The position numbers and the translations under genes are program-made. 64,000 bases of DNA from Escherichia coli. GTDB lineage: Bacteria; Pseudomonadota; Gammaproteobacteria; Enterobacterales; Enterobacteriaceae. Below the pieces are notes generated by a model. It saw only the letters and a list, made by a program, of their open reading frames with translations, did no database searches and had not been told where the DNA came from. The stretch is taken from the NCBI RefSeq assembly GCF_003334255.1, contig NZ_QOWU01000013.1; one strand, given 5' to 3'. This document shows, piece by piece, positions 53,772 through 59,012 of this stretch. Numbering within the stretch: position 1 is the first letter of the stretch; each line of letters begins with the position of its first letter.

Positions 53772-56700
53772 ATGTCTTCAACAAATGCGCATCAAATAAA
53801 AAATAATGATCAAAACTCTTTATGTGGTCTGGGTGACAAAATACGCCGCCTGACCGCCGGAGTTTGTTTATTTACACAAATTTTTTTCCCCGTCATGGCG
53901 ACGGCACAAAATGTGGTACATGCTAAACCTCAGACGACAGTTTCATCTGCCCCCCCTCTAATAGAAAATAATACTGTGCCTTACACGCTTGGTGCGCTGG
54001 AATCAGCGCAAAGCGTTGCTGATCGATTCGGTATTTCACTGGAGGAGCTTCGTCGTCTTAATCAGTTCCGTACTTTTGCTCGCGGCTTTGATAACGTGCG
54101 CCAGGGTGAAGAGCTGGATGTTCCGGCAACAACCTTGCAGAAAAGTCATGAGCAACAAAATGCCGTACCGCCTGCGAATGGCGAAAACACGCTGGAGAAT
54201 CAAATAGCCAGCACTTCGCAGCGAGTTGGCACCCTGCTTTCACAAGATATGAATAGTGAGCAGGCCAGCGGCATGGCGCGTGGTTGGGCGTCTTCAGAAG
54301 CCTCAGGCGCGATGACTGATTGGTTAAATAACTTTGGCACTGCGAAAATCTCTCTGGGTGTGGATGAAGATTTCAGCCTGAAAAATTCGCAATTCGACTT
54401 CCTGCATCCGTGGTATGACACACCTGATTATCTGCTCTTCAGCCAGCATACCCTTCACCGAACAGACGATCGTACCCAGATCAACACCGGTTTGGGCTGG
54501 CGTCATTTCACCCCCAGCTGGATGTCAGGCATCAACCTGTTTTTTGACCACGACCTGAGCCGCTATCACTCCCGCGCGGGTCTTGGCGCAGAATACTGGC
54601 GTGATTATCTGAAGTTGAGCAGCAACGCTTATATCGGCCTGACTGGCTGGCGTAGCGCACCGGAATTGGATAATGACTACGAAGCCCGCCCGGCCAACGG
54701 CTGGGATTTTCGCGCGGAAGGCTGGTTACCAGCCTGGCCACAACTGGGTGGAAAACTGGTCTATGAACAATACTATGGTGATGAAGTGGCGCTGTTTGAC
54801 AAGAATGATCGCCAAAGTAATCCCCATGCTATTACCGCGGGCCTCAACTATACCCCCTTCCCGCTTCTGACTCTCAGTGCGGAACAGCGTCAGGGAAAAC
54901 AAGGTGAAAATGACACACGTTTTGCCGTTGATCTAACCTGGCAACCCAGCAGTTCAATGCAGAAACAGCTTAACCCGGACGAAGTGGCCGGACGGCGCAG
55001 TCTGGCCGGTAGTCGTTATGACCTGATTGATCGCAACAACAACATCGTTCTGGAATATCGCAAGAAAGAGCTGATTCGCCTGAGTCTGCTGGATCCGGTG
55101 AAAGGAAAGTCTGGAGAAATAAAACCGCTGGTTTCCTCGCTACAGACCAAATATGCCCTGAAAGGCTATAACATCGAAGCCGCTGCGCTGGAAGCTGCCG
55201 GAGGTAAAGTCAGCACGTCTGGAAAAGATATCACGGTTACGCTGCCAGGTTATCGCTTCACTAACACTCCAGAAACCGATAATACATGGTCGATAGACGT
55301 TACCGCCGAGGATGTAAAAGGGAACCTGTCACGGCATGAACAAAGCATGGTCGTCATTCAGGCTCCGACATTAAGCCAGAAAGATTCTCTGTTATCCGTT
55401 AATCCGCTAACCGTAGCTGCAGATAAAAAATCGACGACCACATTGACCGTTACTGCGCACGATTCCGACGGAACTCCGGTGCCGGGGCTGGCGCTGCAAA
55501 CCCGCAGTGAAGGCGTTCAGGATATCACCCTGTCTGACTGGACAGATAACGGTGATGGTAGTTACACACAGATGCTGACCGCCGGAACGACATCAGGTTC
55601 AGTAACACTGACGCCGCAAATTAACGGTGAGAGTGCGGTAAAAGAATCCATTGTCGTTAATATCGTCCCTGTTGTCTCATCCCGCGACCATTCATCAATA
55701 ACAATAGATAACGTATCGTATTATGCCGGAGACGACATCAAGGTTAGGGTGGAACTGAAAGACGACAGCAATCAACCGGTTGCATATCAAAAAGAGGAAT
55801 TGGTAAAAGCCGTTACTGTCGAAAACAGCAAACCTGGCGCCACGATTGTCTGGCACGAAGAGCAGCCTGGCGTTTATACCGCGAATTATCCGGCCCATAA
55901 GCAAGGGACAGCACTAAGGGCACAACTTAGCCTTCACAACTGGAATGCTCCACTGCAATCGCATATTTATAACATTGAGGCAAACCAGAATAAGGCTCGC
56001 GTCGCCACATTATCAGCGACGAATAATGACGTTTACGCCGATAAAAAGACATTTAATACCCTCACGATCAACATCACTGATGAGAGTGATAATCCCCTGA
56101 CAAATCATCAGGTCACCTTTAAGAATGAAAAAGGAAGCGCGGAGTTTGTCGAACCGCCGCAGCAAAATACGGATGCATATGGTGTTGCCACAATCAACAT
56201 GGTAAGTCAGGTTGCGGAAGAAAATACGATTAGCGCCACGCTGCCAAATGGTTTCTCACAACGGATAATTGCGAAATTCGTTAGCGATTCGAGTACGCCA
56301 AAATTCAAACAACTGGTTGCCGATCCAGATACCATTATTGCTGGCAACAGCCAGGGCAGTACTCTGACCGCCACCGTCACAGACTTTCATAACAACCCAT
56401 TAAAAGATATGAAAGTGAATTTTGTGGCACCTGGTGGTTCGCAACTGGACAACACGACCGCCACAACAGACCAGTCCGGTATTGTGCGAGTGCACCTGAC
56501 CAGTTCAAAAGCTGGTAGCTATTCCGTCGATGCCTCGCTTGAGGCGGATAAAAATATTCACCAGTCGGTCACGATCACCGTGGTCCCAAACAGGGAACAA
56601 TCGGTAATGACCTTAAATGCCGGGTCAGGCAGTGCGATCGCTAACAATACAAATACCGTTATCCTGACAGCCAGTGTGAAAGATGTTTATGGACACCCGT

Positions 56701-59012: not shown

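Follow-up and report, generated by a model that had tools for sequence, protein, structure and literature searches.

What is the very large gene that lies between yjiJ and kptA in some strains of Escherichia coli and is absent from K-12, and as part of what unit of DNA is it carried there? The window studied here, a stretch of 64,000 nucleotides from an E. coli genome (RefSeq assembly GCF_003334255.1, contig NZ_QOWU01000013.1), holds such a gene at positions 53772-59012. A first-pass annotation of the window had read it as a giant inverse autotransporter (IAT) adhesin with about ten immunoglobulin (Ig)-like repeats; the nature of the gene was thereby read correctly, but its existing name, iatD, and the published study of it (PMC6714894) went unrecognised. 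There is very little doubt in our minds that what lies here is the iatD orthologue of ATCC 11775, and that it encodes a surface adhesin of the type Ve (inverse autotransporter) class. The additions made by the present re-analysis are modest: a deeply divergent 10.4-kb haplotype, the frameshifted state of iatD in about half of its carriers, and the location of the frameshifts in a single poly-C tract.

Identity of the gene

53772..59012, plus strand: iatD coding sequence, ATG start, 1746 amino acids (aa), intact; RefSeq WP_000099596.1, 'inverse autotransporter IatD'

The 1746-codon open reading frame (ORF) is present exactly as first described, flanked by yjiJ (52383-53561, plus strand) and the convergent kptA (59133-59717, minus strand). 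An open frame of this length has a chance probability of (61/64)^1746, about 1e-36, and in the ORF listing no other-frame ORF of at least 80 aa overlaps iatD in any frame. The GC content within the gene (0.46-0.54) is near the values of the flanks. A 7.5-kb query around iatD gave a 100% match to the chromosome of the E. coli type strain ATCC 11775 (NZ_CP033092.2), in the RefSeq record of which the gene is named iatD and lies, as in the window, between yjiJ and a convergent kptA.

The names iatA-D were given by Goh et al. 2019 (mSphere, PMC6714894), and iatD was cloned from strain SMS-3-5 (EcSMS35_4876, 5,241 bp). The window protein shares 98.17% aa identity with SMS-3-5 IatD (1746 versus 1746 aa, with no gaps); the IatD orthologues are reported to be more than 98% identical among themselves at the aa level (PMC6714894). 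The locus order yjiJ'-iatD-kptA-yjiH is common to ATCC 11775, SMS-3-5 and O157:H7. The literature search yielded mentions of IatD only in Goh et al. 2019 (PMC6714894) and in one review; the gene itself, the domain layout of its product and the effect on biofilm are already published, and the NCBI annotation pipeline names the gene.

Domain architecture of IatD

The features of the protein, from the N- to the C-terminus, are the following.

53772..53906, plus strand: long Sec-type signal peptide, predicted, cleavage site included, from sequence and hydropathy
53979..54122, plus strand: LysM-like segment (residues 70-117), called on a weak Pfam match and similarity to YeeJ
54213..55040, plus strand: IAT beta-barrel with linker (residues 148-423), PF11924, E 2.6e-108 over the full model length
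55068..55376, plus strand: putative D00-like Ig domain (residues ~433-535, boundaries approximate), the first Ig-like domain after the barrel
55380..58379, plus strand: ten Big_1/Invasin_D3 Ig-like domains (Pfam)
58425..58661, plus strand: invasin D4-like Ig domain (residues ~1552-1630), PF21764, E 9.5e-5
58674..59009, plus strand: C-terminal tip, probable invasin D5 homologue (C-type-lectin-like), carrying C1660 and C1742

The predicted signal peptide comprises a polar N-extension and, within residues 22-45, a basic stretch (DKIRR) and a 17-residue hydrophobic core (LTAGVCLFTQIFFPVMA), with a cleavage-type A-x-A motif (A-T-A / Q) near residue 45 as the probable site. The N-terminal segment aligns with the N-terminus of YeeJ, and its make-up appears to fit the long signal peptides of the inverse autotransporter family.

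That the protein is an inverse autotransporter was borne out by the hidden Markov model search for the barrel domain, in which PF11924 was found with the E value given above. Compared to solved structures, the barrel matches those of invasin (PDB code: 4E1T, E 3.5e-81) and intimin (PDB code: 4E1S, E 5.8e-67), and all Ig domains of IatD lie C-terminal to it. The NCBIfam intimin model aligned residues 152-530 of IatD to intimin positions 173-549 (364 bits versus a cut-off of 1400); because this alignment covers residues 152-530, residues 433-535 probably correspond to the D00-type Ig domain, for which no separate Pfam match was obtained.

The ten Big_1/Invasin_D3 domains occupy residues 537-631, 640-735, 745-836, 847-938, 946-1041, 1052-1135, 1149-1238, 1244-1333, 1346-1438 and 1443-1536. 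Nine of them have E values of 1e-10 or lower in Pfam and one, at 640-735, is weak (the match itself spans residues 640-714). The repeats, first counted as about ten, come to ten of the Big_1 type plus the D00-like and the D4-like domain (Invasin_D4 match at residues ~1564-1624), followed by the tip. Neither tandem nor long direct DNA repeats were found inside iatD, the Ig domains having diverged at the DNA level. Variation of iatD by repeat number, considered as a candidate, was rejected on the lack of such repeats and on the uniform length (5241 bp) of all sampled non-frameshifted alleles.

The last 216 residues match domains D4-D5 of invasin (PDB code: 1CWV) with E 2.6e-6 as a single sequence and E 3.2e-13 as a five-sequence profile, the tip aligning to 1CWV residues ~306-462, and residues 1258-1713 match invasin D1-D5 with E 3e-24. 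C1660 and C1742 are the only cysteines beyond the N-terminal/signal region; in the pairwise alignment C1660 stands opposite the cysteine in RQCQGSD of invasin, and C1742 is near the C-terminus. This homology agrees with the C-terminal lectin-like domain with paired cysteines that had been suggested for the protein. The Pfam Intimin_C domain has no match in the tip. A search for homologues with the tip yielded five proteins, and the tip is related to that of YeeJ. AlphaFold2 models were unusable both for the C-terminal 310 residues, predicted from the single sequence (predicted local distance difference test, pLDDT, 31), and for the C-terminal 216, predicted from an alignment of five sequences (pLDDT 35).

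A divergent 10.4-kb haplotype

48786..59165, no strand assigned: alternative haplotype block, 10,380 bp in place of 2,203 bp of K-12
59133..59717, minus strand: kptA, RNA 2'-phosphotransferase, 194 aa, 585 nt, residues 1-184 being the full family length
49123-51216: espX6-like pentapeptide-repeat gene, 697 aa, 2094 bp, absent from K-12

In K-12 (XL1-Blue) and many other strains there is no gene between yjiJ and kptA, the stop codons of which are 12 bp apart, so that the absence of iatD from K-12, expected in the first-pass annotation, is established. Its strain-variable character holds as well: iatD (at least 80% of the gene) was found in 639 of 5426 complete E. coli genomes (~12%). Complete iatD had been reported in 6% of 126 genomes and in 10% of the E. 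coli reference (ECOR) strains (PMC6714894).

The block was mapped by pairwise blastn of window positions 40001-64000 against K-12. The left flank (42125-48785) is 96.0% and the right flank (59166-63924) 98.0% identical to K-12, whereas the yjiK-yjiJ segment between them (51479-53539) is 80.7% identical. Because yjiK and yjiJ are ~19% divergent versus 2-4% for the outer flanks, the unit of difference is the whole 10.4-kb block, which contains the espX6-like gene (49123-51216), yjiK' (51473-52312), yjiJ' (52383-53561) and iatD. An upstream segment of the window type (90% identity or more) is present in ~643 genomes, nearly as many as carry iatD, and the 81% type in 4740.

kptA has 585 nt (194 aa) in the window and in SMS-3-5 versus 555 nt (184 aa) in K-12, which confirms the difference in length given in the first-pass annotation. 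Its product is aligned by NCBIfam NF002012 over positions 1-184 of 184; the ten extra codons (59136-59165) are read from haplotype-specific DNA, and from 59166, the first base past the kptA stop codon of K-12, the two sequences are homologous again. The longer kptA is accounted for by this break of homology exactly at the K-12 stop codon. The idea that the extension reflects an insertion junction was upheld in so far as homology breaks at that point, but the event concerns the 10.4-kb block and not iatD alone.

At the left, the boundary of the block also lies at a gene end, that of a ytiA/DUF3343 homologue (48519-48785; record 4081841-4082107): the part homologous to K-12 ends 17 nt short of the stop codon of K-12 ytiA, and the gene has 267 nt in the window versus 258 nt in K-12. 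In O157:H7 strain 3384 kptA (6899-7494 of its locus record) is a pseudogene, frameshifted by the loss of one A in an A-run. It ends ...EFLE-stop, so that the right junction of this strain differs from that of the type strain; the spacer between iatD and kptA is ~37 bp longer.

yjiJ was compared across relatives with one genome per species. In Escherichia sp. E1V33, E. whittamii and two more "E. coli" representatives, yjiJ is no closer to the window allele than that of K-12 is; three of these four share 94-97% identity with K-12 versus 91-92% with the window allele, and in none of them was iatD found downstream of yjiJ. The YjiJ of the fourth, E. coli E69 (CP089930.1), 91% identical to the K-12 and window alleles alike, makes a third allele type, and a search of the 10 kb that follow E69 yjiJ detected neither kptA nor iatD nor yjiH. 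Citrobacter sp. Cu233 encodes, ~1 kb downstream of its yjiJ homologue (12120-15248 of the locus record), a 1042-aa protein with LysM, barrel, Ig and lectin-like domains in the same order and 45% identity to IatD over 707 aa. The iatD haplotype looks either old or imported from a diverged lineage, and the Citrobacter locus hints that the adjacency of yjiJ and an IAT gene predates E. coli.

The espX6-like gene has a low GC content (0.31-0.38) and lies within 48786-51478. Its O157:H7 counterpart is named type III secretion system effector EspX6 by the Prokaryotic Genome Annotation Pipeline (PGAP), and its product shows weak NCBIfam similarity to PipB/PipB2. The gene is thus found in the type strain ATCC 11775, which is not known to carry the locus of enterocyte effacement (LEE). 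Near the 3' end of the espX6-like gene a 24-nt tandem repeat is present in at least seven copies (50898-51137). The gene measures 2094 bp in the window versus 1974 bp in SMS-3-5, from which it follows that the copy number of the repeat may vary.

A poly-C tract and pseudogene alleles

53950..53956, plus strand: C7 homopolymer, codons 59-61 (A-P-P), just after the signal peptide

Tract lengths of C8 and C6 both shift the frame of iatD, and PGAP marks the affected genes as 'frameshifted'. The iatD of O157:H7 strain 3384 is so flagged, as is its kptA, the cause in iatD being a change from C7 to C8. We surveyed the tract with a 101-nt query in 60 carriers, sampled evenly from 615. The in-frame length was found over the whole query in 31 of the 60, O157:H7 ATCC 43889 and O157 strain 493/89 among them; the +1 length occurred in 27, all of the O157:H7 type, the -1 length in one, and one further genome matched only part of the query. 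Most O157:H7 strains have C8 and ATCC 43889 has C7; C8 looks lineage-fixed. Of the complete genomes that carry iatD, about half have a frameshifted copy, and these are essentially the O157:H7 lineage; the share of complete genomes with an intact gene (~6%) agrees with the published 6%.

A C6 query was matched exactly in five genomes, which represent at least three backgrounds (MS7163, O39:NM F8704-2 and three O145 "-C1" assemblies); one of the five is annotated as frameshifted. O145 RM9872 aligns to the C6 query with a single additional base, as a C7 tract would, and RM9873-C1 has C6. The tract as such may be a hot spot or may act as an ON/OFF switch, and the C6 lengths could be homopolymer assembly errors. 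An iatD copy disrupted by an insertion sequence is present in H44.

Function and expression of IatD

IatD of SMS-3-5 was localised to the cell surface by immunofluorescence, and its overexpression in a K-12 flu mutant led to biofilm in microtitre plates and flow cells; neither autoaggregation nor binding of extracellular-matrix proteins was seen (PMC6714894). The domains published for IatD are LysM, a beta-barrel, Big1 and C-type lectin (PMC6714894). By analogy with the family, we propose that the protein would pass the inner membrane by the Sec route by means of its long signal peptide, that the LysM segment would anchor its periplasmic end to peptidoglycan, and that a 12-stranded beta-barrel would be put into the outer membrane by the beta-barrel assembly machinery. 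The C-terminal passenger would then thread outward through the barrel and fold as a rod of about twelve Ig-like domains, capped by a tip of the invasin D4-D5 type that a C1660-C1742 disulfide may stabilise.

The sequences that border the gene are the following.

53562..53771, plus strand: yjiJ-iatD intergenic spacer, 210 bp, AT-rich, with a ribosome-binding site (GGAAGG) 7 nt ahead of the start codon
59028..59055, plus strand: hairpin, candidate terminator read from the sequence, with a perfect 11-bp stem, AAGGATACCCT-tgtgcg-AGGGTATCCTT
59058..59146, no strand assigned: repetitive extragenic palindromic (REP)-like element, core CCTGATGCGCTGCGCTTATCAGGCCTA at 59082-59108

The GC content is 0.38 in 53500-53999, which covers the spacer upstream of iatD. 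The sole promoter-like match in the spacer (53576-53605) agrees at 9 of 12 positions, and across the scan such matches were no more frequent than in shuffled sequence. The hairpin starts 16 nt after the iatD stop codon, has a poor T tail, and received no call in a consensus terminator scan. The element at 59058..59146, which from its consensus we take to be REP, matches a repeat found elsewhere in the K-12 locus at 79%. The 3' end of yjiJ at the empty site and the REP core have a 14-mer, GCTGCGCTTATCAG, in common, which may be chance.

Alternative explanations

Nothing was found that contradicts the identification as IatD. What can be held against it, or against the functions attached to it, is that the window protein reaches no NCBIfam model at its curated cut-off, so that it is called IatD for its near-identity to the published protein; that the Pfam LysM match is weak (E 0.03, 22 residues only), although the LysM-like segment, already noticed in the first-pass annotation, is almost identical over residues 70-118 to the matching segment of YeeJ; that the lectin-like fold of the tip is drawn from homology of sequence; and that the functional data were obtained with an IPTG (isopropyl beta-D-1-thiogalactopyranoside)-driven SMS-3-5 allele in K-12 and not with ATCC 11775 or native expression. 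It is possible, though we incline against it, that iatD is intact but cryptic in ATCC 11775, being silenced under ordinary growth, for instance by H-NS acting on the AT-rich upstream DNA, a control reported for further inverse autotransporters of E. coli, and that it contributes nothing unless a regulator lifts the silencing. Such a reading bears on expression and leaves the identity of the gene untouched. The AT-rich spacer and the promoter-like matches, not above those of shuffled sequence, speak for silencing, as do the IPTG-driven overexpression that every published phenotype required, the failure to detect native IatB protein, both in PMC6714894, and a paper on H-NS control of FdeC cited in the reference list of PMC6714894. 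The frequent pseudogenisation in O157:H7 fits weak selection, but the sampled non-O157 carriers hold an intact gene of 5241 bp at ~97-98% or higher identity, which argues for purifying selection. An invasin-like role, in which the D4-D5-type tip would engage a receptor on host cells, for example beta-1 integrin, and IatD would serve uptake rather than mainly biofilm, would suit the alignment of the last ~450 residues to invasin D1-D5 and of the tip, with its conserved cysteine pair, to D4-D5, and we nonetheless judge it highly improbable. Opposite the aspartate of the invasin CQGSD motif, which we take to be D911, the integrin-binding residue, IatD appears to have N1664, four residues after the cysteine; the alignment is not robust there, and the substitution is weak evidence against integrin binding. 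The low identity of the tip alignment also counts against such a role, as does the lack of binding to extracellular-matrix proteins, while a possible host receptor was raised by Goh et al. (PMC6714894).

As to the origin of the gene, a discrete mobile element inserting iatD between yjiJ and kptA would be in line with the mere 12 bp that separate these genes in K-12, with the alteration of the kptA 3' end exactly at the junction and with the REP-like element that adjoins the right junction. This is scarcely credible, and the model was rejected: the block has no annotated integrase or transposase, no Rfam families were found, flanking direct or inverted repeats are lacking, and there is no tRNA gene in the block annotation (no tRNA scan was made). 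Furthermore, the GC content of iatD is near that of the flanks, the divergence of yjiK and yjiJ by 19% means that the whole block differs, and in a Citrobacter species a related protein with LysM, barrel, Ig and lectin parts is encoded downstream of the homologue of yjiJ. Two bolder readings, that the C7 tract is a genuine slipped-strand ON/OFF switch of IatD or at least a recurrent mutational hot spot under selection or, alternatively, that the block is a colonisation module of long standing, inherited as a unit and maintained in E. coli as a balanced dimorphism, strike us as improbable; neither is put forward in Goh et al. 2019 (PMC6714894).

Comparison with known adhesins

As the ATCC 11775 orthologue of iatD, the gene is a correct but ordinary finding, which the structure of the haplotype and the frameshifts in the poly-C tract extend in a minor way. 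Along with several other surface adhesins that vary between strains, IatD may influence which sites the different E. coli lineages colonise.

Intimin (Eae of enteropathogenic and enterohaemorrhagic E. coli) shares with IatD the barrel, the Ig rod and, probably, the LysM and D00 domains; in contrast to intimin, the tip of IatD is without a PDB or Pfam match to the Tir-binding domain, and iatD is outside LEE. On the NCBIfam model of the IatC N-terminus, residues 13-838 of IatD reach 1126 bits versus a cut-off of 2400, and LysM and lectin-type domains are reported for both IatC and IatD (PMC6714894). IatC differs in its greater and variable length (2,459-2,965 aa; PMC6714894) and in its locus. 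Yersinia pseudotuberculosis invasin resembles IatD in the barrel (4E1T), in the end of the passenger (D1-D5, 1CWV) and in the cysteine pair of the tip, but it has four Ig-like domains versus about twelve in IatD, which moreover has a LysM-like segment.

YeeJ, which promotes biofilm, is, as judged from sequence, the nearest paralogue of IatD. The two have the same architecture and share 52% identity over 1437 aligned residues, with far higher identity in the N-terminal anchor (signal peptide, LysM, barrel and first Ig domains), the N-terminal 840 residues being close; the DNA is ~77% identical over iatD nt 199-1994, and the C-terminal tips are 44-49% identical. YeeJ differs in its chromosomal locus, in a passenger that diverges past residue ~840, and in its greater length, 2,359 aa in SMS-3-5 (PMC6714894). 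YeeJ is reported to bind peptidoglycan, as stated in the title of a paper cited in PMC6714894.

The closest likeness is to IatD of SMS-3-5 itself (EcSMS35_4876, ACB20062.1). The two proteins differ by 32 substitutions, spread along their length, and by nothing else; the genes share the length of 5241 bp and the products the 98.17% aa identity given above, and the SMS-3-5 locus has, like the window, the pentapeptide-repeat gene, yjiK', yjiJ' and the 194-aa kptA.

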